This document shows, one piece after another, positions 669-23,992 of a stretch of 41,255 bases of DNA (position 1 is its first letter; each line of letters opens with the position of its first letter). The translations under genes were made by a program, and so were the position numbers. Origin of the DNA: Candidatus Saccharimonadales bacterium (GTDB taxonomy: Bacteria; Patescibacteriota; Saccharimonadia; Saccharimonadales; DATIHP01). Under the pieces are notes generated by a model. The model was given only the letters and a program-made list of their open reading frames with translations, was not told the DNA's origin and did not search any database. The stretch spans positions 1-41,255 of the forward strand of contig DATIHP010000045.1 of assembly GCA_035480495.1 (NCBI GenBank). The letters run 5' to 3'.

Positions 669-2798
669 CTAGTAATAGTACCAAGACGAAATACCGGTCG
701 AATTGGTGACGTCTTTGACTTTGATAGGGTCGCCGCCGTCTAAGCTGATGGCATAGTCCGCCGTTTCCTGGTCCGTTTTTACCCGATACACAAGCACGCT
801 GTCATTGAGCCATCGGACCGGATACGTGATACCGCTCTGGCTGCGCAGCGTGGTGTCGGTCTTGGTAGCTAGGTCGTAGATAAGTATGACGCCTTTGCCG
901 TCACGTTTATCAACCCAGGCGCTGTGTTTGCCATCCGGACTATCGATGTATATGCGCGAAGTCTGATTGACTGGAGCATTGTTCAGTTTTATCGGCGCTT
1001 TGTCCCCCAGATGATAGTCGTACCATTGCTGCTGGACGGACAGCGTCATGTGGTCATAGGCGGTCCTGAAGATATTCCAGACCTCCTGGCCGAAGACTGT
1101 CTGGGCCGAACTGCCATCCGCATTAATCTTATAGAAGTTGGTCGGCGTCGTCTGGTAGGCGCTGGACGGCGCGTAATAAATGGCTCCTTGCGCTGAGGTC
1201 ACATCATTGAAGTAATTAGCACTGGCCAGTTCTTTGCTGGAGCCGTCTTTGAAATCATAGCTGACAAGCCGGTAGCGTTTGGGGCTGTCTGCGCTGGCAC
1301 CGGCCGCAATCTGCACATAAACCAGCCGGTCACCAGCCCAATCGACAATCTGTATCCGTTCCGAGGTTGCGACAGCGGTCGTGGTATTATCCGTGGTGTT
1401 GATAAGCACCAGGTTGCTCAGCAAGAAACCGTCGCCGTTATGTTGGTTCCCCCGGTTAGAGACATAAGCGACGACCTCCTCCGATGGGTGCGGCACCAGT
1501 ACCATGTTGCTTTCCTGTTCGCTGCCACTGCCTGCTAGTACTAGTTTCTCGTCTTTGCCATCTATATAGACGCTGTAAATATCGTATTTACCAGAGCGTT
1601 TCGAGACAAAGAGCTGCTTGCGGGCTGGCACCAGTCTCACGACATGGTCGCCTTTATCGGCTGGATCAATCATGACTTGTTCGCTGCGGTAATTATCGGC
1701 TTGGACGGTAATCTGAATCTTCTGTTCATCCGGCTTATCGATAGTCAGCTTGATTGCACCCTTATCGTCTGCTGAGGCATCGGCGCCGTTGCCGGTGGCC
1801 AAGGCTTTAGCGATGGGTTTTTTGGATAGGTAATCCGTAATGGTAAACGTATATTGGCTGCCGGTCGGCTTCAGTTCGAAATCACCGAGCGGATTGCTGC
1901 CAAGCCCAAGCGTTATGGTCTTGGAAACCGGTGCGAAGGCGCGTTTTTCAACCAGTAATGTCTGGGGGCCCAGCTTAATATTCTTGAGACTGGCAGTGCC
2001 GCTGGCGTCGGTAACGACACTGACGCTACCGATTTGCACATGGACGTTTTTGAGCGGTTGGCCTGTACTTTCATCTACCACGCTCAATGAGCTGCTGGCA
2101 TGGACGCCGGCTGTATTCAGAACGAAATAACGTGACGTCGGAACCAAGACCGCGGTGATTATGCCAACCAATAAGGCAAGTAGCAGACCCCAGCGCACGA
2201 CCGGTCTGGCAAAGAATGACCTGATTGCGCCAGCAATGTGCTTCTTGGGCTTCGGTTCTTCTTCAGCGGGCTGGTCAGAATCGCGGATGGCGTCCTCTAC
2301 CTCTAGCAATTCATCACCTTCGCCGGCCACGATATCGTCTACAGCCTTGTCCGTCTCCGGATCGGTAACATTTGATACAGCGGCCAGTGCTGGGTCTCCT
2401 TCTATCGGTTTGCCATCATCCGGTATCATTTCGTCCCCTGCTTGGTCTTGGGATCCCAGCCCTGCTATGGCTTCGTCTAGCTTTTCAGCTACGATGGTAG
2501 GTGAATCGCTGTGTTCGGTAATCGTAATCTGCTTGACGGCTGCCGGGGCTTTGGCAGGCGTGGCAACCGGTGGCGCATCAGCATTCTGGGGCTGTGCATC
2601 CGGTAGTTCGGGCGCTGATGGCAAGGCATTTTCGGCGGGTGGTTCTGCCGATGATGACGGAGAAACTTGAATATTTTTGGGAGCTGAAGCAGGTTGTCCA
2701 GCAGGACTATCAGGAATGGTGGGGTCCATCATCTGCTTGACCTTTTGTTCAATGTCTTCGCTGCGCGGATTTAAGTCCTCGGTGCGTTCTTGTTTCAA
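669..2798 (-). CDS. large single-pass surface protein: acidic/Pro-Ala-rich N-terminal region, one TM helix, Ig-like/carboxypeptidase-regulatory-like repeats, C-terminal TolB/PD40-like beta-propeller region
   Basis: 709-aa ORF with a TTG start and AAGGA 12 nt upstream. It has a low-complexity N-terminus (PSAPELPDAQPQNADAPP...) and a TM segment (WGLLLALLVGIITAVLV). The C-terminus is beta-rich with repeated 'YVS../S.DG' strand patterns typical of propeller blades. The domain calls rest on sequence character only. Confidence 0.6.
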   Translation of the reverse strand: MKQERTEDLNPRSEDIEQKVKQMMDPTIPDSPAGQPASAPKNIQVSPSSSAEPPAENALPSAPELPDAQPQNADAPPVATPAKAPAAVKQITITEHSDSPTIVAEKLDEAIAGLGSQDQAGDEMIPDDGKPIEGDPALAAVSNVTDPETDKAVDDIVAGEGDELLEVEDAIRDSDQPAEEEPKPKKHIAGAIRSFFARPVVRWGLLLALLVGIITAVLVPTSRYFVLNTAGVHASSSLSVVDESTGQPLKNVHVQIGSVSVVTDASGTASLKNIKLGPQTLLVEKRAFAPVSKTITLGLGSNPLGDFELKPTGSQYTFTITDYLSKKPIAKALATGNGADASADDKGAIKLTIDKPDEQKIQITVQADNYRSEQVMIDPADKGDHVVRLVPARKQLFVSKRSGKYDIYSVYIDGKDEKLVLAGSGSEQESNMVLVPHPSEEVVAYVSNRGNQHNGDGFLLSNLVLINTTDNTTTAVATSERIQIVDWAGDRLVYVQIAAGASADSPKRYRLVSYDFKDGSSKELASANYFNDVTSAQGAIYYAPSSAYQTTPTNFYKINADGSSAQTVFGQEVWNIFRTAYDHMTLSVQQQWYDYHLGDKAPIKLNNAPVNQTSRIYIDSPDGKHSAWVDKRDGKGVILIYDLATKTDTTLRSQSGITYPVRWLNDSVLVYRVKTDQETADYAISLDGGDPIKVKDVTNSTGISSWYYY

Positions 2799-3560: not shown

Positions 3561-3589
3561 TTGACAACATGTAAACATAGGCGTATTTT
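3561..3589 (+). promoter_or_regulatory. sigma70-like promoter (TTGACA-17 nt-TATTTT) placing the transcription start on the A of an ATG
   Basis: TTGACA lies at 3561-3566, followed by a 17-nt spacer and TATTTT at 3584-3589. Exactly 6 nt separate the -10 element from ATG 3596. The same geometry occurs at 10246-10282. Confidence 0.6.
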
Positions 3590-3595
3590 CAGCTT

Positions 3596-3676
3596 ATGGT
3601 TATAAACTCAAAAACAAATACATGCGCACGTACCGTCATCATGGCGGTTGGGGAGTCGCGTGTTTTTGTTGAGTAA
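3596..3676 (+). CDS. leaderless 26-codon micro-ORF (MVINSKTNTCARTVIMAVGESRVFVE), a candidate leader peptide or small protein; paralog of 10280..10351
   Basis: Hand translation was index-checked against the overlapping track ORF 3589..3921. It aligns codon-for-codon with the second micro-ORF (MV..., T7, R/K12, I15, V23). Confidence 0.45.
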   Translation: MVINSKTNTCARTVIMAVGESRVFVE

Positions 3677-3709
3677 ATAACCAAAACAAAACTAACAAAA
3701 GCAAACGAA

Positions 3710-3738
3710 CCTCCCCGAACTAAACGGGGAGGTTTTTT
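3710..3738 (+). terminator. intrinsic terminator hairpin CCUCCCCG-AACUAAA-CGGGGAGG plus U6
   Basis: An 8-bp GC-rich stem (3710-3717 / 3725-3732) is followed by tttttt (3733-3738). A near-identical hairpin lies at 10389-10411. Confidence 0.7.
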
Positions 3739-3753
3739 AAAAGGAAAACTAAA

Positions 3754-4134
3754 ATGGGTACTACTGCCAAACAGCTGGAGCAAAGAGTCCAAAGGGTGCA
3801 TTCGGCCCCGCGATTCGACAGGGCTGCACTTGCGGAATGGGAAGCTATAACGCAAGAGCAGGATACGGAAGTTTCTTTGGAGCGGCTTGCTTTTGAGTCG
3901 CTTTCGAGAAAACTTGACCAAGACCTCCCTGATCTCGTGTCTGGTCCTGAAGAGGAAACCAAGGATGAGGCCGCTCAGGTCATTGCTACTGGCGAATCTG
4001 AAGCAGTTGAAGTTGACCTTACTAGCCTTAGCGGCGAGGCTTTGCTTGAATTTGATTTTTCCGAAAGGATTGCCAGAATCAACGCTGGTCTTCTGTCTTT
4101 AGGAATCAGTGACAATTTAGCTCAGGCGAGTTGA
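3754..4134 (+). CDS. hypothetical acidic soluble protein (126 aa)
   Basis: ORF with ATG start and AAGGAAAA upstream. It has protein-like acidic helical composition and no recognisable family. It overlaps the convergent 3' end of the S51 peptidase gene by 18 nt. Confidence 0.4.
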   Translation: MGTTAKQLEQRVQRVHSAPRFDRAALAEWEAITQEQDTEVSLERLAFESLSRKLDQDLPDLVSGPEEETKDEAAQVIATGESEAVEVDLTSLSGEALLEFDFSERIARINAGLLSLGISDNLAQAS

Positions 4135-7417: not shown

Positions 7418-8398
7418 TCATAAGACTACCCTTATACGCCCAAAGTTTTTACCATTGAGATCCTTCAGCGCAATATTTTCCCATGTAAATTTTGCTTTTT
7501 CAAGCTGATTTGGCGAAAGAATACCCTGGCGAAAACTGTCATTTCTTGTATTCAATACTCCAACACCGGTCCAGAATTTCGCTATTGAGTCCTTGGTTGA
7601 GCCGACTGCTAGGAATACTCCTGAGGGTAATGGTTGGGTAAAGGCTAGGATTTTATCAGGCCTAAACGTATAACCCGCTTCCCGTTTGGTCAGTGAGATA
7701 TATGCATCATGGAGCAGAGTATTCTTCTCCATCCAAAGAGAGTCTGCGCGCTGTTGTGAATTCGGTTTTGCGTTCAGTTCAATCATTGCCGCGCGTTCCT
7801 TACTGACAACCGGTAGGCCTCCGGGTAGTTTTAGGGCAAACTTTTCTACGTCTTGCTCCAGTTTTTGATAAAACGCTTCGGGCGATTCAAACTGTTCATC
7901 GACGCCGGTTATGGTCATTTTGAAATTTTTTGGTTGATATTGCTTTAGGAAACTTAAAAGGTTCCGGTAGCTTGACTTGTAGGTCTCAACCTCAGTTAGG
8001 CTAATATTGTCCAGTTTTGGAAGTATCAGATCGTCTACGAACGAATCAAACCAAACTCCCGGTTCGTGAATCTCACAAATCGGCGCAAGCCATTTGGTGT
8101 AGTACATGAGTGCAAAGAGTTCCGCCCAGTCAACTTCTGGTGTTTCCTCAAGGCGCCAAAGTTTATAAGCTCCGTGCGTGAACATGACATTAATAGGTTT
8201 ACTCTGCTCAACGTTTGTACGTATTGCCTCTCTAATATGTGCAATGAGTTCGGGGTTAGCGGAATACTTACGGAATTTTTTGGACAACAGGATTTTTGAA
8301 ATCGCTTCAATAAGCTCTTCATTGTTTGCAGGCTTCTCTAAGCCAAGCGGCACATTGAGTTCTTTGAGTTTGGTCTGGATGTATTCTTGTGCGGTCAT
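7418..8398 (-). CDS. uncharacterised 326-aa protein, paralog 1 of a duplicated family in this locus
   Basis: It aligns over its full length with 9092..10072. Shared motifs are MTAQEYI, SKKFRK, KLW, PE[VI]DWAELF, EPG, LKQY, GSTK..AKFW and GKNF.RIR. There is no TM segment and I cannot assign a family confidently. Confidence 0.75.
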   Translation of the reverse strand: MTAQEYIQTKLKELNVPLGLEKPANNEELIEAISKILLSKKFRKYSANPELIAHIREAIRTNVEQSKPINVMFTHGAYKLWRLEETPEVDWAELFALMYYTKWLAPICEIHEPGVWFDSFVDDLILPKLDNISLTEVETYKSSYRNLLSFLKQYQPKNFKMTITGVDEQFESPEAFYQKLEQDVEKFALKLPGGLPVVSKERAAMIELNAKPNSQQRADSLWMEKNTLLHDAYISLTKREAGYTFRPDKILAFTQPLPSGVFLAVGSTKDSIAKFWTGVGVLNTRNDSFRQGILSPNQLEKAKFTWENIALKDLNGKNFGRIRVVL

Positions 8399-8476
8399 GA
8401 TTTTGGAGATGCGGGGCAGACATGAACCTGCCGTATGTAGCTTTGCAAGCTACCACCTATTCTCGGTCACCGCATC
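8399..8476 (-). promoter_or_regulatory. structured 5' leader, riboswitch-like three-way junction, copy 1
   Basis: Minus-strand RNA elements are:
- P1: GAUGCGG (8476-8470) / CCGCAUC (8414-8408)
- J1/2: UGACCGAGAAUAGGUGG
- P2: UAGCUU-GCA-AAGCUA
- J2/3: CAUAC
- P3: GGCAG-GUUCAUGU-CUGCC
Only UCCAAAAUC (9 nt, no SD) separates P1 from the AUG. The leader is part of a 100-nt block (8378-8477) identical to 10052-10151. Confidence 0.6.
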
Positions 8477-8482
8477 AGTATC

Positions 8483-8491
8483 ATTTTAACA
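8483..8491 (-). promoter_or_regulatory. extended -10 promoter TGTTAAAAT for leader copy 1
   Basis: The minus-strand TGnTAAAAT ends 6 nt upstream of the first P1 nucleotide. The homologous position in copy 2 is TGTTACAAT. Confidence 0.5.
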
Positions 8492-8516
8492 GAGATGGCT
8501 GGCTTAAATGAAAATG

Positions 8517-9095
8517 TTAGGTACTTATTCTTTCTTTGCCGAACGTGGGTCGATATATGCAGAACAGCATCACCACACAAGATAAAACTATGTAAGCTTG
8601 GAATATGACGCTCGACCTCAACCCGTCATGAACAATAGCCAAAGTTGCGGCTATACCTTCAAGCCAGTACATTAAAGGCGCTTCAGATTTTGGCAACTTC
8701 CAAGTTTTAAGCACTGCCGGTATATATGCGACTGCATCTGCCAGTATGGCAAAAGCTAATGCCCAAATGCCACTTCCTGTTACCTGCCAAGCCAGAATGC
8801 CAAGTACAGCAATAATTGCACAGCTGATATCAAGCCTGCTGGTGCCACCGATTCCTCTCTTTATTGATAAAAGCGCCAAGAGAAGGCTTCTTCCAAAGAA
8901 AAGTAGCGAAAGTAGTAAGACTCCCAGACCGGCGTGTGCCGCTATTGTCCCCACAAGATTAGCCACCGAAACTATGAAAAGTACTACACGCGTTGTCCGG
9001 TGCGGACGAGTCGTGCCTTTCAGGATGCTTAGCACATAATCTGTGGTTCCAACGACGGATAGGGTTGTGGCTATTCCCAGTAAAGCCGGTTTCAC
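8517..9095 (-). CDS. 7-TM membrane protein with 3+1+3 internal repeat (SWEET/PQ-loop/PnuC-like transporter candidate)
   Basis: 192 aa with a GTG start overlapping the upstream stop (GTGA at 9092-9095). I predict about seven hydrophobic helices. Two similar loop motifs follow helix 1 and helix 5 (SILKGTTRP and AVLKTWKLPKSE). Confidence 0.55.
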   Translation of the reverse strand: MKPALLGIATTLSVVGTTDYVLSILKGTTRPHRTTRVVLFIVSVANLVGTIAAHAGLGVLLLSLLFFGRSLLLALLSIKRGIGGTSRLDISCAIIAVLGILAWQVTGSGIWALAFAILADAVAYIPAVLKTWKLPKSEAPLMYWLEGIAATLAIVHDGLRSSVIFQAYIVLSCVVMLFCIYRPTFGKERIST

Positions 9096-10072
9096 GACGA
9101 TATTTCTTTCAAAATCCTAATTCTCTTAAAATTTTTACCTTCAAGGCCCGGGACATGGGTCTTTTGCCAATCAAATTGAGCTGTTTCCAGCTGTTTGGGT
9201 GTCAGGACAAGTTCGTTATAACTATCGCCGGCATGTTCAAGAGCTCCTACCGCGACCCAAAATTTTGCATATGACTTCTTGGTACTGCCTGTGGCGATAC
9301 AGCCTGGATAATAGGTTGGACACGAGGGAATCATTGAGGGGTCATTTATATATCTTTCCATGGTTTTGGTCCGTTCTATGCTCTGATGTATAAGCTCGGC
9401 CTTTTCGCGCCACAATGGGTCGTCCGTTTGCCCGGGTTTTAACCGCACATTAAGTTCCGTCGCTTCCCTTTGATGTTCGTCCAGTTCGGGAAGTTTGCCT
9501 CCTAGTTCTTTCGACACTTTTGCCTTGGCTTGCTCAAGTTCTGCCAGATATTCTGATATATCGCCATATTCATCGCCGTATCTTTTGTATGATACCGCAA
9601 CGTTTTCTGGCAGGTACTGTTTGAGCCAATTCAGCATAGCCACGAAAGAATCCGAGTATTTGTCCGTTTCCTGCTTGGGCAAGTTATTCATGTTTTCAAG
9701 GACAACATCTTCTGAGTAATACTCCAGCCTTGCCCCCGGCTCATAAACACTCGCGATTGATTTCATCCAGCGCAGTAGGTATGTCGTGACGAACAGCTCA
9801 GCCCAATCAATCTCCGGCGCCTCATCAAAATGCCACAGTTTATTGCCGCCAAAGATTACATTGACGACAATCGGCTTATTGTCTTTGACGGAAAGTTGTA
9901 TGGCCTTTTTAGTGATTGTTATCACGTTGTCGTCGGCTTTGAGTTTACGGAACTTCTTGGACATGACTTTAGCAAAGATGGCTTCTTCAATGGGCGTACT
10001 ACTAACATCAGTCAGTTCCGTGGACTCTTTGAGCGCCTGGAGTGTTGAGATGATGTATTCTTGTGCGGTCAT
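9092..10072 (-). CDS. uncharacterised 326-aa protein, paralog 2 of the duplicated family
   Basis: It has the same length and shared motifs as 7418..8398. Its first 7 codons and its leader are nucleotide-identical to paralog 1, and the rest is strongly diverged. Confidence 0.75.
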   Translation of the reverse strand: MTAQEYIISTLQALKESTELTDVSSTPIEEAIFAKVMSKKFRKLKADDNVITITKKAIQLSVKDNKPIVVNVIFGGNKLWHFDEAPEIDWAELFVTTYLLRWMKSIASVYEPGARLEYYSEDVVLENMNNLPKQETDKYSDSFVAMLNWLKQYLPENVAVSYKRYGDEYGDISEYLAELEQAKAKVSKELGGKLPELDEHQREATELNVRLKPGQTDDPLWREKAELIHQSIERTKTMERYINDPSMIPSCPTYYPGCIATGSTKKSYAKFWVAVGALEHAGDSYNELVLTPKQLETAQFDWQKTHVPGLEGKNFKRIRILKEISS

Positions 10073-10150
10073 GATTTTGGAGATGCGGGGCAGACATGAA
10101 CCTGCCGTATGTAGCTTTGCAAGCTACCACCTATTCTCGGTCACCGCATC
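10073..10150 (-). promoter_or_regulatory. structured 5' leader, riboswitch-like three-way junction, copy 2
   Basis: Nucleotide-identical to 8399-8476 at a constant offset of +1674. P1 strands lie at 10144-10150 and 10082-10088. Confidence 0.6.
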
Positions 10151-10156
10151 AAGATT

Positions 10157-10165
10157 ATTGTAACA
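10157..10165 (-). promoter_or_regulatory. extended -10 promoter TGTTACAAT for leader copy 2
   Basis: Minus-strand TGTTACAAT ends 6 nt upstream of P1, the same spacing as copy 1. Confidence 0.5.
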
Positions 10166-10245
10166 GCACGGCCAAGCTTGGCAGCTTCAAAATATCTCAT
10201 ACATGATTTAATTTAGGACCATGAGAACTTACGGAAATTTATTTG

Positions 10246-10273
10246 TTGACAGGCTTTTTGGCGGGTGTATGCT
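10246..10273 (+). promoter_or_regulatory. sigma70-like promoter (TTGACA-16 nt-TATGCT) placing the transcription start on the A of an ATG
   Basis: TTGACA lies at 10246-10251 and TATGCT at 10268-10273. Exactly 6 nt separate the -10 element from ATG 10280, the same geometry as 3561-3598. Confidence 0.6.
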
Positions 10274-10279
10274 ACCTGC

Positions 10280-10351
10280 ATGGTTACTATTAAACCCACG
10301 GCACAAGCCGTGAAGCTCACGATTATCGTGGCCCGCACGGGGAGTGTTTAG
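10280..10351 (+). CDS. leaderless 23-codon micro-ORF (MVTIKPTAQAVKLTIIVARTGSV), paralog of 3596..3676
   Basis: Hand translation was index-checked against track ORF 10323..10601. It begins ATGGTTA like the first micro-ORF. Confidence 0.45.
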   Translation: MVTIKPTAQAVKLTIIVARTGSV

Positions 10352-10388
10352 GTTTGTAGCCAATAAATAATAAAAAGACAAACCCAAA

Positions 10389-10415
10389 CCTCCCCGCCAT
10401 AAACGGGGAGGTTTT
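10389..10415 (+). terminator. intrinsic terminator hairpin CCUCCCCG-CCAUAAA-CGGGGAGG plus U4; its 3' arm doubles as the SD for the TTG start at 10420
   Basis: The 8-bp stem is identical to that of 3710-3732. GGAGG ends at 10411, 8 nt before TTG 10420. Confidence 0.7.
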
Positions 10416-10419
10416 AATT

Positions 10420-10692
10420 TTGTCGAAAGGATTCAAAAAAATGGAACGACCAACATTAACTGCACAAGCAGGAGCTGAGGCTGCTGGACAACGGCAAGAA
10501 GGTGCTTTACGGCATATGGCAGAGGCTGCCGTACATTTTGCTGCAGAATTGGGAACGGCATTGCTCACTCCATATTCACATGCAGCAGAAGCTTCCGTCA
10601 CACATGCTCAGCCAGATCGGCGTGCTGGAGACAAAGTAAACCCAATGCTAGTGGATGTGTCTCCTTGGGTCAGTACCGAACACCGGACTTAG
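10420..10692 (+). CDS. hypothetical Ala-rich small protein (90 aa from TTG 10420, or 83 aa from ATG 10441)
   Basis: ORF with GGAGG at ideal spacing for the TTG start. It ends 6 nt before the convergent aspS stop. I recognise no family. Confidence 0.35.
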   Translation: MSKGFKKMERPTLTAQAGAEAAGQRQEGALRHMAEAAVHFAAELGTALLTPYSHAAEASVTHAQPDRRAGDKVNPMLVDVSPWVSTEHRT

Positions 10693-10697
10693 GATGC

Positions 10698-12008
10698 TTA
10701 GGGCGCCAGCCGGTTGATATCCCGCGGGAACAGAGTGGCTTCTTTGACGTTATTCAGATTCAGTAATTTCTCAACCGTGCGCTCCAACCCCCAGCCGAAG
10801 CCGCCATGCGGCGGTAAGCCGTATTTGAACGCCTGCAGGTAATATTTGAAACCCGGATGCTCAGGGTCGCCCTTGGCTAATTCTTTGAGTTGTTTTACTA
10901 AGACCTCGTAACGGTGTTCGCGCATGGGTACGGTAGCTATTTCTACGCCGCGGAAAAGCAGGTCGGAGCGGTCGGCGACCTTTGGATTTTTCTCGTTGAC
11001 TTTGTGGTAGAACTTCATGCTGCTGACCGGCCACTCCGTGACATATACGGCCTCACTACCGAGGTTTTTCTTGGCATAATCGCATATCCACTTTTCCTCA
11101 TCGGGCCGCAAGTCTTCCTCGCCGACAGTTTTGGTGCCGGTGGCTTTGGAGTACAGTTCGTGTATCTGGGCCATAGTCAAAGATGGTATCGGTTCCGCCA
11201 GAACAGGTTTTTGAGCATTCCACATCTTAAGTTCAGGTCCGCAGTCCTTCCAGACCTTTTCTACGATATGGCGCAGCAGGCCGCCTGTGAAATCACGCAG
11301 TTCCTCAAAGGTCACGAAGCCCATTTCCGCATCGATGGTAATGTACTCCGTCATGTGGCGCGTGGTGGCGCTTGGTTCGGCGCGGTATGTCGGATTGGTC
11401 TCAAAGACACGCTCAAAGACGCCTACCATCATCTGCTTATAAAACTGGGCGCTCTGCGCCAGCGTGGCTTCTTTGCCAAAATAATCCAGCTTGAATACCT
11501 CGGCGCCGCCTTCAGTAGCTCCGGACAGCAGTTTGGGTGTGTTCATCTCCGTGAAACCGTTCTGGATAAAATACTCGCGCGCCGCTTCCAGGACCTTGGC
11601 TTGGATACGGAAAATAGCCGTCTCCTGTAGGTTGCGCAAACCGATGACCCGGTTATCGAACAGTGTGTCCAGGTTGTCCGGTTTGTGGCTGAGAGGCTTG
11701 TCAATCTCAACGGGCGGCTCCTCGGTCACCGGCACCAGGACCTCAATGTGCGGTTCGCGCAGTTCAGCACCGCCCGGCGCGCGCTCCTCCTTGAATACCT
11801 TGCCCTTTACTTTCAGGACCGTACCGATATGCAGACCGCGCAGTTTTTCCACCTCTTTTTTGTCTTCCACCACCATCTGGACCAAACCGCCGCGGTCACG
11901 GATGTTTATGAAGTTCAGCCCACCCAGCAGCCGCTTCTTATGCAGCCAACCCTGGATTTCCGCCTCTTTGCCGATGTGTTTAGCAATATCTGTGCTTAAA
12001 ACTCTCAT
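10698..12008 (-). CDS. aspS: aspartate--tRNA ligase, archaeal/eukaryotic type (class IIb; possibly non-discriminating)
   Basis: 436 aa with an N-terminal OB-fold anticodon-binding domain. Motifs are GATEGGAEVF...LAQSAQFYKQ, RAEPSATTRHMTEY and GLPPHGGFGWGLER. The size and the ATEGG motif fit type-2 AspRS rather than AsnRS. Confidence 0.9.
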   Translation of the reverse strand: MRVLSTDIAKHIGKEAEIQGWLHKKRLLGGLNFINIRDRGGLVQMVVEDKKEVEKLRGLHIGTVLKVKGKVFKEERAPGGAELREPHIEVLVPVTEEPPVEIDKPLSHKPDNLDTLFDNRVIGLRNLQETAIFRIQAKVLEAAREYFIQNGFTEMNTPKLLSGATEGGAEVFKLDYFGKEATLAQSAQFYKQMMVGVFERVFETNPTYRAEPSATTRHMTEYITIDAEMGFVTFEELRDFTGGLLRHIVEKVWKDCGPELKMWNAQKPVLAEPIPSLTMAQIHELYSKATGTKTVGEEDLRPDEEKWICDYAKKNLGSEAVYVTEWPVSSMKFYHKVNEKNPKVADRSDLLFRGVEIATVPMREHRYEVLVKQLKELAKGDPEHPGFKYYLQAFKYGLPPHGGFGWGLERTVEKLLNLNNVKEATLFPRDINRLAP

Positions 12009-21748: not shown

Positions 21749-22326
21749 AGCTTATGTCTTTTTATATATCTTTGTACTGCTGGGGGCAAGCCGTCAGCAG
21801 CTTTGTCCCGCTTGAGCAGCAGACGGATAGTTGAGGAGGTTACCTCTTCATAGGCAGGGTGAATGATTTCATATCTGAAGCGCAGGTTGCGGGTCTTTTC
21901 CAGGGTGTGAAGTGTCGCCGTGAGGTCGGACATATCCCGGAGTCGCGCAGCAATCATAAGTTCGGCCACATTCACCATGGCGCCTACATGCGGCCAGCTG
22001 GCGATATGGCTTATGACGTCCGCACCGAATAGCAGCACTAACTGATAGCCCGCAAAACGGGCCTGCAATTTCGGCAATGTCTCATGCACCGTGAAACGGG
22101 CCTGTTCCAAGGCAATTATGCCATAGCGGCCTTCATGGGCAATCGCCAAACGTACCATAGCGCGGCGGTGTTCAAGCGCCCGCACACCTTGTTTGCGGCG
22201 CGGCCGGGGCTCGGGCAAGAACATGACTTTCTCTAAGCCCGCATCTAAGGCCGCCTGTGCGAAGGCGATATGGCCGTCATGAATCGGGTCGAAGGTTCCG
22301 GCAAATATACCTATTTTTTTGGTCAT
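21724..22326 (-). CDS. nadD: nicotinate-nucleotide adenylyltransferase
   Basis: GIFAGTFDPIHDGHI matches the (H/T)xGH nucleotidyltransferase motif, and a C-terminal SSTIR motif is present. I place the start at ATG 22326, which overlaps the upstream gene's TGA (ATGA). The track ORF extends to 22353. Confidence 0.85.
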   Translation of the reverse strand: MTKKIGIFAGTFDPIHDGHIAFAQAALDAGLEKVMFLPEPRPRRKQGVRALEHRRAMVRLAIAHEGRYGIIALEQARFTVHETLPKLQARFAGYQLVLLFGADVISHIASWPHVGAMVNVAELMIAARLRDMSDLTATLHTLEKTRNLRFRYEIIHPAYEEVTSSTIRLLLKRDKAADGLPPAVQRYIKRHKLYSTTTAD

Positions 22327-23792
22327 GCTGCTTTTAGTATACCTACCGCCCATGAGCCAGCTTTAGATTTTTCCCTTTTTGGCGGCTTACTTTCATGCAG
22401 TACTTTTCCGTCACAGATGTCTACTTCATATTTACAGTGTGGGCAGCGCCAACTTTTTTCTTTGACTACATCTTTTTTATTGACAGTTTCACGGCATTTT
22501 ATGCAGCGGATTTTTCCCGATTTGGAATCAGTTTCATCGTTTAATCGGTCGCTTGATTGTTCATCTGTATTTTCCTGGCCGTCTTTATTTTTTTCCTCCT
22601 GGAGGGCCCCGGGACAGGACGAAGATTTGGCAGTTTTTTCAGCATTGTGAAGAGCGGCGTCGGCTAATTCATAATTTCCTGATGCACGATGCGTACGAGC
22701 CTGTTGTATGTGGCCAGCTGCTGTTGGACCAAATACATTTGGATTAATTGACTTGTCGTCTACTGCGTTTCGCACCCCTGCTTTTTCTGATAATTTACCT
22801 AAGCGCTTGGTAGCATCCGTTGGTGTTTTAAATGTATGCCTTTCGCTAATCAGTTGGCGCCTGATATCTTCGACCATAGATTTAAGACCCGCTTGGCGCT
22901 GCCTCCAAAATTCTCTATGTTTTACATAGTCTTGCTGAGGTTTATCTTCTCCAAAAAATGTTCCCTCCGGCTCATCAAACCAAGCCACTGGGTCAACCAC
23001 ACCATTCGGCATTAATTTTTTAGGTATTAACAGGGGGGAATCTAGTATTTGAGTAGTTGACATGTTATCAAAATTTTTACCTAGTTTCTTGGCTATATAT
23101 TTGACTGCTTTTATGTCATGCCTCTCGGCTCCTGGACGCTTAACCCCTGCTACAAATGCAGATTCCAACTTTACACTGTCTTCTTGCGCCGTTGTCGCCT
23201 GCATAGCACAAGACATTGTGTCTACAAAAAAGTCTTCTTCAATCAATTCTTCTTGGGTCATATTATCCGGGACAAGTGAAAAGACGACAAAATAGTTATC
23301 CTCTAGCAGGCCCATCTCCTGGGCAATATCTTGACGATATTTATTGCGAGCCTCTGCTTGCAAGCGTTCACGCATTTGCCAGGTACGGCCAACGAAACGC
23401 AAGCTATTGCCATTTACTGAATCCAGGCTCTGGCCATGCTGTCCAAGACCGTTTTGCCCGTCTGCACGCAAGTCAACTTCCGTGATTGAGCCAGCCTTAA
23501 AACTACGCTCTATGTAATCTGCCTCAATGTTTTGATCTACCATATTTATGCCGTTCGCATCGCCAGCAGCGGCTAAGCGGATTCCTTCTAAGAGGTTATG
23601 GGAAATGCCTGGATGTTGGTCACTTTTTTTTGGCAATTCACCCGCCACTGCTAAAGAACCGTTAGCTCTCATGAGTCGTTTGGCGCGTTGTTGTGCCAGC
23701 TGGTCTTCGGGCATCGTGGGCATAACAATCACATCAGTTGCCATCCGTTCTGCGGTTGGTAATCGTTCGGCTATCGCGGCTGCTCCGGCCAT
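22323..23792 (-). CDS. orphan ~489-aa soluble protein with C-terminal CxxC...CxxC zinc ribbon and Lys-rich tail
   Basis: The track ORF runs to 23909 with a GTG start. ATG 23792 has GAGGG 7 nt upstream, and the 39-codon extension is Cys-rich, non-protein-like and overlaps a strong hairpin. The zinc ribbon is IRCIKCRET...WRCPHCKYE. I recognise no family. Confidence 0.6.
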   Translation of the reverse strand: MAGAAAIAERLPTAERMATDVIVMPTMPEDQLAQQRAKRLMRANGSLAVAGELPKKSDQHPGISHNLLEGIRLAAAGDANGINMVDQNIEADYIERSFKAGSITEVDLRADGQNGLGQHGQSLDSVNGNSLRFVGRTWQMRERLQAEARNKYRQDIAQEMGLLEDNYFVVFSLVPDNMTQEELIEEDFFVDTMSCAMQATTAQEDSVKLESAFVAGVKRPGAERHDIKAVKYIAKKLGKNFDNMSTTQILDSPLLIPKKLMPNGVVDPVAWFDEPEGTFFGEDKPQQDYVKHREFWRQRQAGLKSMVEDIRRQLISERHTFKTPTDATKRLGKLSEKAGVRNAVDDKSINPNVFGPTAAGHIQQARTHRASGNYELADAALHNAEKTAKSSSCPGALQEEKNKDGQENTDEQSSDRLNDETDSKSGKIRCIKCRETVNKKDVVKEKSWRCPHCKYEVDICDGKVLHESKPPKREKSKAGSWAVGILKAA

Positions 23793-23799
23793 ATTAAAA

Positions 23800-23820
23800 C
23801 CCTCGCTCGGTGAGCAAGGG
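23800..23820 (-). promoter_or_regulatory. terminator-like hairpin whose 3' arm contains the SD of the downstream orphan gene
   Basis: Minus-strand CCCUUGCUC-ACC-GAGCGAGGG forms a 9-bp stem. It is followed by UUUUAAU and then AUG 23792. Confidence 0.5.
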
Positions 23821-23992
23821 CTATGAATCAAATTCAACGCTCCTGCTCGGGAGACTTTATGTATGTTGTATCGGGCTTTAACCGTTGCGGCACAGCATAG
23901 GAATTTCACCTATTTCCAACAATTTTTATTAATAAAGAACCTGTGAGTAGTAGTGTAACACGGCCCATAGACGCTATATGTAGTATTTTTGT

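Follow-up and report, generated by a model that had tools for sequence, protein, structure and literature searches.

The DNA considered here is a stretch of 41,255 nucleotides (nt) from a Candidatus Saccharimonadales bacterium (assembly GCA_035480495.1, contig DATIHP010000045.1, positions 1-41,255, forward strand), referred to below as the window. On its plus strand, positions 10246 to 10692 hold a predicted promoter, a short open reading frame (ORF), an intrinsic terminator and a small protein-coding gene. The original prediction for this locus, termed copy B, described the first three features as an attenuator-like unit with a leaderless-looking micro-ORF, and recognised a paralogous copy A elsewhere in the window. 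The unit is supported by its conservation in a family of related modules, and its layout is that of a candidate leader-peptide attenuator.

The promoter of copy B (10246..10273) consists of TTGACA (10246-10251), a 16-nt spacer and TATGCT (10268-10273), and matches the consensus at 10 of 12 positions. After a gap of 6 nt, the leader ORF (10280..10351) begins with AUG 10280 and runs for 23 codons (MVTIKPTAQAVKLTIIVARTGSV) to the stop codon UAG (10349-10351). All of these coordinates agree with those first proposed. The intrinsic terminator ('3:4', 10386..10419) is composed of AAACCUCCCCG, a 7-nt loop and CGGGGAGGUUU (10386-10414), followed by the U-tract UUUUAAUUUU. Its stem (10386-10396 with 10404-10414) contains 11 bp, seven of them G-C, precedes UUUU and has the top score in 20 kb; the terminator had thus been correctly placed, albeit with a stem of 8 bp instead of 11.

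Copy A (3561..3738, plus strand), the A-type paralogue, follows the scheme TTGACA-17-TATTTT-6-ATG 3596, with a 26-codon ORF (MVINSKTNTCARTVIMAVGESRVFVE), GGGGAG at 3650-3655 and a terminator at about 3707-3738, after which a Shine-Dalgarno (SD) sequence and ATG 3754 introduce an orphan ORF of 126 amino acids (aa). The match in architecture between the two copies therefore holds. In a consensus scan over 20 kb, both promoters and both terminators rank among the best-scoring sites. The exact terminator stem is found at only two sites in the window, namely copies A and B, with 0.13 sites expected in a scan allowing three mismatches. Folding of the whole RNA against shuffled sequences gives z-scores of -5.1 for copy B and -7.4 for copy A.

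The gene presumed to be regulated by copy B (10426..10692, plus strand) comprises the SD AAAGGA (10426-10431), ATG 10441 and the coding sequence of an 83-aa protein with its stop at 10690-10692. The public collection contains a protein (P0001) identical to this ATG-10441 product. Comparison with the orthologue at locus L124 yields a dN/dS of 0.18, which indicates a real gene under purifying selection. The protein has only nine relatives among 5.8 billion proteins, its AlphaFold model, in which one long helix is predicted, has a low-confidence pLDDT of 62, and neither this protein nor the 126-aa protein of copy A has a match in Pfam or NCBIfam. No promoter was found between the terminator and the downstream SD. 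As had been noted, the ORFs downstream of copies A and B are dissimilar while the unit itself is conserved: BLASTP returns no alignment between them at E<=100. Furthermore, the A-type downstream ORFs show no significant similarity among themselves, and a protein search with the 126-aa ORF of copy A retrieves only itself. Conservation is thus stronger in the leader than in the sequence downstream of it.

On the opposite strand, 5 nt separate the stop of the 83-aa ORF from the end of the aspartyl-tRNA synthetase (AspRS) gene (10698-12008, minus strand), which has no terminator of its own in this gap. Read on the minus strand, the hairpin 10386-10414 likewise qualifies as a terminator, with 13 pairs followed by GGGUUUGUCUUUUU. 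Since the AspRS gene lacks its own terminator ahead of this hairpin, AspRS transcripts may run antisense across the small ORF and end at what would be a bidirectional terminator.

The family to which both copies belong has 13 members in Saccharimonadales/Patescibacteria assemblies, 11 of them outside the window. Three subtypes are distinguished, comprising nine B-type members, three A-type members (copy A, L123b and L132) and the single C-type member L067. Members were collected through a terminator pattern, a promoter pattern, homologues of the downstream protein, AspRS synteny, and nhmmer and covariance model (CM) searches. The terminator-pattern scan of genome contigs gave 71 loci, three of which carry the element (L031, L063 and L067, the last recognised later through a CM search); the remainder share the generic terminator sequence alone. 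Scanning metagenome contigs for promoter+ATGGTTA+TARCCA gave 52 loci, which resolved into two true members (L107 and L123) and 50 chance matches or ordinary leaderless genes. Homologues of the downstream protein led to L124, L125 and L126, nhmmer to a second copy at L123 (L123b), and AspRS synteny to L129 and L132. A scan of viral contigs for the pattern GGGGAG...GTTTGTARCC matched only an unrelated phage coding region.

All 13 members share TTGAC(A/G/C) or TTGCTT, a spacer of 16-18 nt and TAnnnT, followed by AUG. The gap between the -10 element and AUG is 6 nt in 12 of the 13 and 7 nt in L129. Nine members were found without the promoter as a search criterion, and the promoter arrangement is still present in them. 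The leader ORF spans 21-30 codons and starts with AUG in every case. GGGGAG is present across the family, with the variants CGGGAG and GCGGGG in two members, and all 13 have the CCUCCCC...GGGGAGG terminator. The layout of promoter and SD-ATG was scored by script in ten members, where the SD and ATG of a small ORF follow 15-35 nt after the terminator; L123b, L132 and L067 were read by eye. The first two of these have the same arrangement, and the downstream start of L067 is ambiguous, being either the TTG of a 57-aa ORF or the ATG of a shorter one.

Rfam was scanned over the whole window at gathering thresholds and over 10000-10460 additionally at E<=10. No family member reaches any gathering threshold in Rfam 15, and there is no riboswitch, leader, small RNA (sRNA) or T-box match among them. 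In 10000-10460, the permissive scan returned only sub-threshold matches, each far short of its gathering score and mostly on the terminator or its flanks; among leader families, these were Phe_leader (E=4.6) and three others with E-values of 1-10, located on the terminator and flanks.

The stretch between the leader ORF and the terminator had been described as an A-rich spacer. An A-rich segment does lie there, but it is not unstructured filler: judged by the alignment of the members, it supplies one of the two strands of a conserved antiterminator. The 5' strand of this antiterminator ('region 2', 10338..10357) consists of C-GGGGAG (10338-10344), GUUU and GGUUUGU (10351-10357), and the 3' strand ('region 3', 10378..10396) of ACAAACC (10378-10384), AAAC and CCUCCCCG. 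The last 11 nt of region 3 (10386-10396) are also the 5' arm of the terminator. Specifically, GGGGAG-U-GUUU-A-GGUUUGU (10339-10357) pairs with ACAAACC-C-AAAC-CUCCCC (10378-10395) with nearly full complementarity, amounting to 18 bp when C10338-G10396 is counted. The 7-bp pairing of CGGGGAG (10338-10344) with CUCCCCG (10390-10396) in the original prediction was thus correct, and it extends to 17-18 bp in all members.

Folded in isolation, the antiterminator hairpin reaches -15.7 to -26.3 kcal/mol with z-scores of -3.0 to -6.7 in 12/12 members (-24.0 kcal/mol and z -6.5 in copy B, -24.5 kcal/mol and z -5.9 in copy A). When the ORF is occluded in the nascent transcript, the antiterminator is the minimum free energy (MFE) structure in 10/10 members, and likewise in L067. 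Plain MAFFT alignments set the spacer in the wrong register and hide the antiterminator, and realignment based on CMs, two of which were built for the element, was required. In the CM alignment A8, 88% of the antiterminator cells are paired, compared with 39-61% in slid controls. Three inner-helix pairs have substitutions in both partners, and one of 500 shuffles attains the same covariation score. The inner helix takes the form GGUUUGU:ACAAACC in the B-type, with UGUUUG:CAAACA in L107 and UUUUGU:ACAAAA in L124. In the A-type it reads GUUUUUGUU:AACAAAAGC in copy A, UUUGGCUUGA:UCAAGCCAAA in L123b and UGCUUU:AAAGCA in L132, and in L067 UUUGAGA:UCUCAAA. The outer helix of L067 is GCGGGG:CCCCGC, which uses another register on the terminator arm. 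Across members, GGGGAG occupies two codon phases, encoding GE or GS, and is therefore conserved as RNA and not as peptide.

A further predicted structure, the anti-antiterminator, had been overlooked together with the role of the spacer. It is a 5' domain closed by AUGGUUAC/GUAGCC, and it sequesters the 5' strand of the antiterminator. In the MFE fold, its 5' strands (10281..10296) are those of helix P1, UGGUUAC (10281-10287), and helix P2, AAACC (10292-10296). The 3' strand of P1, GUAGCCA (10356..10362), closes the domain onto the AUG-proximal nucleotides, and GGUUUGU (10351-10357) doubles as the 3' strand of P2. In a third helix, CUC of the Leu13 codon ('region 1', 10316..10318) is the predicted partner of GGGG(AG), corresponding to columns 39-42 with 63-66 of the RNAalifold consensus. 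The 5' strands of P1, P2 and CUC:GGGG all fall within leader codons 1-13.

At full length, the MFE structure combines the 5' domain with the terminator in 9/10 members; in L125, the terminator is kept and the closing P1 stem is lost. In the CM alignment A10, 92.7% of the cells of the 5' domain and terminator are paired, as opposed to 43-60% in slid controls. Eight pairs show changes on both sides, four of seven in P1 and four of five in P2, a result reached by 0/500 shuffles. A compensatory change in P1 of L125, from G-C to A-U (GAUUAC/GUAGUC), was recognised by eye. The closed 5' domain, the antiterminator and the terminator are mutually exclusive, and the three folds hence conform to the 1:2 / 2:3 / 3:4 layout of an attenuator.

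The leader ORF itself bears several signs of a reading frame. In 12/12 members, frame 0 runs from the AUG to GGGGAG without a stop, whereas frame 2 is interrupted in 10/12 and frame 3 in 8/12. A shuffle test assigns this a joint probability of about 10^-4.4 on the assumption of independent sequences, which is violated here because the sequences are related. The distance from AUG to GGCC is 51, 54 or 57 nt in the B-types, i.e., it varies by in-frame indels. All indels 5' of the Ala codon are multiples of 3, whereas those 3' of it measure 1-2 nt. Similarly, L132 differs from copy A by a 3-nt Ile insertion. Two consecutive Ile/Val codons stand at a fixed distance from GGGGAG in 11/12 members, and L067 has VVV; in copy B, they are the codons of Ile15-Ile16 (10322-10327). 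The last Ile/Val codon begins 12 or 14 nt 5' of GGGGAG in 12/12 members (14 nt in copy B), although the patch covers only 2-3 codons and the sensed amino acid is a presumed one. The stop codon is located 0-21 nt past GGGGAG. Taken together, the ORF of copy B is likely translated, and the spacing from the -10 element places the predicted +1 at the A of AUG 10280.

Elsewhere in the window, two genes of 328 and 439 codons, starting at ATG 6545 and ATG 38105 (both minus strand), have TTGnnn-17-TAnnnT-7-ATG at their start. These two long, leaderless-looking genes suggest that leaderless mRNAs are in general use in the source organism.

The element is very probably some kind of terminator/antiterminator switch. 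More specifically, copy B is interpreted with moderate confidence as a ribosome-mediated leader-peptide transcription attenuator, the leader ORF of which is translated from a leaderless transcript. The comparison of members shows conservation of the promoter, the ORF frame, the three predicted folds and the downstream SD-ATG, along with covarying pairs in P1, in P2 and in the inner helix of the antiterminator. From these features we infer where transcription starts, that the ORF is translated, which signal stalls the ribosome and that read-through occurs.

In the proposed mechanism, the transcript would begin at the A of AUG 10280 and could adopt three folds. Fold (i) would be the closed 5' domain with P1 (UGGUUAC:GUAGCCA), P2 (AAACC:GGUUU) and CUC:GGGG, hiding GGGGAG and GGUUUGU. 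Fold (ii) would be the antiterminator of 17-18 bp, GGGGAG-GUUU-GGUUUGU : ACAAACC-AAAC-CUCCCC. Fold (iii) would be the terminator CCUCCCCG:CGGGGAGG with its U-tract. If no ribosome is present, fold (i) would form first, the terminator would follow, and transcription would stop at about 10415-10420. If translation proceeds to the stop codon (10349-10351), the ribosome would mask GGGGAG and GGUUUGU, again leaving the terminator to form and transcription to end. Stalling with one of the Ile/Val codons (10322-10327) in the A site, on the other hand, would leave the ribosome over the CUC partner, with its leading edge just short of GGGGAG. The antiterminator would then take up the 5' arm of the terminator, and RNA polymerase would enter the 83-aa gene. 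The position of the Ile/Val codons is the last A-site stall that leaves GGGGAG outside the ribosome while CUC is covered.

Several observations weigh against this interpretation. When the free nascent RNA is folded thermodynamically, the antiterminator is already the favoured structure in 8/10 members, and the OFF default therefore depends on kinetics. The CUC:GGGG helix is the weakest of the helices, being 95% paired with no two-sided changes, and the outer antiterminator helix GGGGAG:CUCCCC is invariant and hence without covariation support. CM alignments are biased toward the model, and the 13 sequences are phylogenetically related. P1 pairs nucleotides 2-8 beside the AUG and, once formed, would hinder leaderless initiation. 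Substitutions at codon positions 1, 2 and 3 number 246/240/264, i.e., there is no 3-nt periodicity, so that the identity of the peptide is not subject to the selection usual for proteins, as would be the case for a leader peptide but also for a non-coding RNA. Part of the short Ile/Val patch is able to form a small hairpin, and its conservation is thus possibly at the RNA level. Finally, the downstream products are proteins of 65-126 aa without a link to Ile/Val metabolism, whereas the targets of such attenuators typically, though not by strict definition, serve the metabolism, charging or transport of the sensed amino acid. Saccharimonadales, moreover, are not known to synthesise amino acids.

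The lack of codon periodicity would also suit a riboswitch-like or factor-binding leader, in which a metabolite, a protein or a tRNA is bound by the closed 5' domain (10281-10362) as its aptamer. Binding would stabilise this domain, hold back GGGGAG/GGUUUGU and thereby favour the terminator, with the ORF being incidental. A three-state layout is equally typical of riboswitch expression platforms, and P1 encloses the 5' end, as the closing helices of many aptamers do. However, the element corresponds to no Rfam family even at E<=10. Aptamers retain conserved junction and loop nucleotides, whereas B-types have little in common inside the 5' domain in either sequence or predicted fold, and between the A-, B- and C-types this interior is unrelated. 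What the three types do keep is the AUG at the predicted +1, the open frame, the in-frame indels, the distance of the Ile/Val patch from GGGGAG and a stop codon positioned inside the 5' strand of the antiterminator or shortly past it. An aptamer is accordingly considered unlikely.

The superior conservation of the leader over the following sequence and the orphan status of the copy A ORF may also be read as the signature of a stand-alone tiny gene or dual-function sRNA. In this case, the peptide and/or the RNA of about 135 nt would act in trans, and the downstream ORF would merely receive incidental read-through. The presence of at least two module copies per genome before different ORFs, as in the window and in L123, is in line with this idea. 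A precedent is available in rnTrpL/peTrpL of Sinorhizobium, an attenuator-derived sRNA and leader peptide for which PMC6614838 and PMC7298713 describe functions in trans. Nevertheless, a conserved and covarying antiterminator that disrupts the gene's own terminator would be superfluous in a simple gene. Moreover, the SD-ATG ORF follows closely behind the terminator with no promoter in between (in the ten scored members, and by eye in L123b and L132), the B-type downstream protein is under purifying selection, and the peptide sequence shows no protein-like constraint. A stand-alone function is improbable; it is compatible with attenuation, such that both could hold.

The same structural evidence would be expected if the attenuator were ribosome-mediated and responded to another signal, such as nascent-peptide arrest by a small molecule or ribosome-targeting antibiotic, translation stress or the availability of 70S ribosomes. 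The motifs MV(T/I)x(K) at the N-terminus and (I/V)(I/V)xA are kept beyond what hungry codons need, and the regulated genes are unrelated to amino-acid metabolism. Ile/Val-rich arrest peptides exist, for example ErmCL with IFVI. Against this, the N-terminal conservation is accounted for by the nucleotides of P1 and P2, the middle and C-terminus of the peptide vary freely and even shift frame, and no resistance-type gene lies downstream. A signal of this kind is judged quite improbable.

The weakest proposal is that a single hairpin both terminates transcription and sequesters the SD of an ORF starting at TTG 10420. GGGGAGG (10405-10411) does end 8 nt before this TTG, the frame of which is open for 90 codons, but the proposed SD role and dual control do not withstand comparison: this TTG, at the end of the U-tract, is in frame and stop-free in only 3/9 homologues, which is the chance rate, while 9/9 B-type loci have an ATG 18-35 nt past the terminator, preceded at a distance of 8-10 nt by a separate SD (AAAGGA or GGAGG); in copy B these are ATG 10441 and AAAGGA, both outside the hairpin. 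It is the 83-aa product of the ATG start that the public collection contains, and copy A lacks any corresponding TTG. This form of control is highly improbable. T-box, 6S, SRP and type I toxin-antitoxin candidates were dropped by eye, as there is no specifier or T-box sequence, no Rfam model and a peptide that is not a membrane helix.

In the window, the A-type and B-type modules are 6.7 kb apart. At L123, an A-type module (2503-2641, minus strand), identified by nhmmer, lies on the same contig as a B-type module (3783-3917, minus strand), 1.1 kb away. Both modules are followed by a small ORF of their own, and the other strand between them carries a 213-aa gene. The two arrangements show that two copies per genome are ancestral rather than the product of recent duplication. 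The A-type homologue L132 (8574-8723, minus strand) was located through AspRS synteny, and the C-type member L067 (4216-4366, minus strand), with the leader peptide MGKIILSVSISANLKSSKLVVVTSCEPAGI, stems from a metagenome-assembled genome labelled Candidatus Paceibacterota. The B-type module always adjoins the 3' end of a nondiscriminating AspRS gene. Conversely, no module of any type is present at 5/7 loci picked solely by AspRS similarity, which makes the element patchy. Locus L063 (DATLEQ010000032.1) is titled Candidatus Limnocylindrales (Chloroflexota); it holds a B-type module in the same CBS-protein/AspRS synteny, with an AspRS 68% identical to that of the window. This contig is probably mis-binned or mislabelled.

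The modules may tentatively be regarded as a small ribosome-directed regulon of Saccharimonadales and related Patescibacteria, a possible though doubtful extension of the attenuation model. The cells are assumed to draw all their amino acids from a host. A 70S ribosome stalled on leaderless Ile/Val micro-ORFs would report the amino-acid supply and switch on fast-evolving small proteins, two or more per genome, for a starvation or host-interaction response. The terminated RNA of about 135 nt or the peptide might additionally act in trans.

The sole Rfam match in the window is an AdoCbl-II riboswitch aptamer (23857-23935, minus strand; 47.9 bits against a gathering threshold of 36.5), which sits at the 5' end of a long minus-strand ORF (22323-23909). 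No tRNA or tmRNA genes were found in the window. A direct repeat of 138 nt (8355-8492 and 10029-10166, 90% identical) comprises the N-terminal codons of two paralogous 326-aa genes (7418-8398 and 9092-10072, minus strand), which have a weak match to DIT1_PvcA, and about 95 nt of their 5' untranslated region (UTR). It constitutes the leader of what the original prediction called a riboswitch-like operon. The leader at 10029-10166 has no Rfam match at E<=10, and the -35 element of copy B is about 60 nt away from its promoter-like site (10184-10157, minus strand).

To our knowledge, almost nothing is known about gene regulation in Saccharibacteria and other bacteria of the candidate phyla radiation (CPR), which have tiny genomes and few regulators. 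If the attenuation model is true, leaderless translation is used as a sensing device in these organisms, and a family of uncharacterised small proteins is regulated by translation or amino-acid status. This would provide a direct handle on how an epibiont perceives the supply from its host. The element also represents a compact three-state RNA switch of about 135 nt with natural variants, and the two CMs can be used to annotate elements missed by Rfam and standard pipelines.

The class of mechanism is textbook knowledge, and the novelty lies in the phylum, the targets and the clean three-state design. A full-text literature search returned no paper linking Saccharibacteria with attenuators, and no account of such a mechanism ahead of comparable genes was found. 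The enterobacterial attenuators (trpL, ilvL/ivbL, hisL, leuL, thrL and pheL) follow the same 1:2 / 2:3 / 3:4 pairing logic, with regulatory codons about 12-17 nt 5' of region 2 and a stop codon that lets the terminating ribosome mask region 2. Unlike the present element, the enterobacterial leaders have an SD-dependent start within a 5' UTR, longer runs of cognate codons and biosynthetic operons as targets.

Leaderless leader peptides have been described or predicted in two further groups. In Mycobacterium, leaderless polycysteine small ORFs (sORFs) attenuate translation (bioRxiv 10.1101/834739), and 14 leaderless leader peptides are predicted in Deinococcus deserti (PMC4007540). The present modules resemble these elements in the proposed use of an sORF starting with a 5' AUG as a sensor of aminoacyl-tRNA supply, and in that multiple copies in one genome could make up a ribosome-directed regulon, or 'ribulon'. 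In contrast to the intrinsic terminator found here, the mycobacterial elements act translationally by unmasking the ribosome-binding site (RBS) of the next gene, and they combine a Cys tract with targets in Cys metabolism. The cases in D. deserti differ in preceding aminoacyl-tRNA synthetase or biosynthesis genes.

The closest known system is the ilvBNC leader of Corynebacterium glutamicum with its peptide IlvL (MTIIRLVVVTARRLP). According to PMC11857589, which cites Morbach 2000 and Narunsky 2023 (PMC10272879), translation of IlvL starts one nucleotide from the transcription start site (TSS) and without an RBS. The same paper presents a three-hairpin model, in which the first hairpin occludes the leaderless start too. 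The two systems differ in size, the module measuring about 135 nt here and about 290 nt in C. glutamicum, and there is no detectable sequence homology; they were compared by type of peptide patch, with no dedicated model of the ilvBNC element run. The host is a CPR bacterium with at least two diverged copies per genome, and the genes downstream encode small proteins of 65-126 aa with no assigned function instead of enzymes of branched-chain amino acid biosynthesis, the gene not being ilvB. Both systems nonetheless share a short leader ORF at or next to the TSS, predicted in the present case, that lacks an RBS. They also have in common the succession of anti-antiterminator, antiterminator and terminator hairpins. 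The Ile/Val/Leu patch of IlvL finds its counterpart in ...KLTIIVAR... of copy B and ...KLVVVTS... of L067, where LVVVT matches RLVVVTA of the C. glutamicum peptide.

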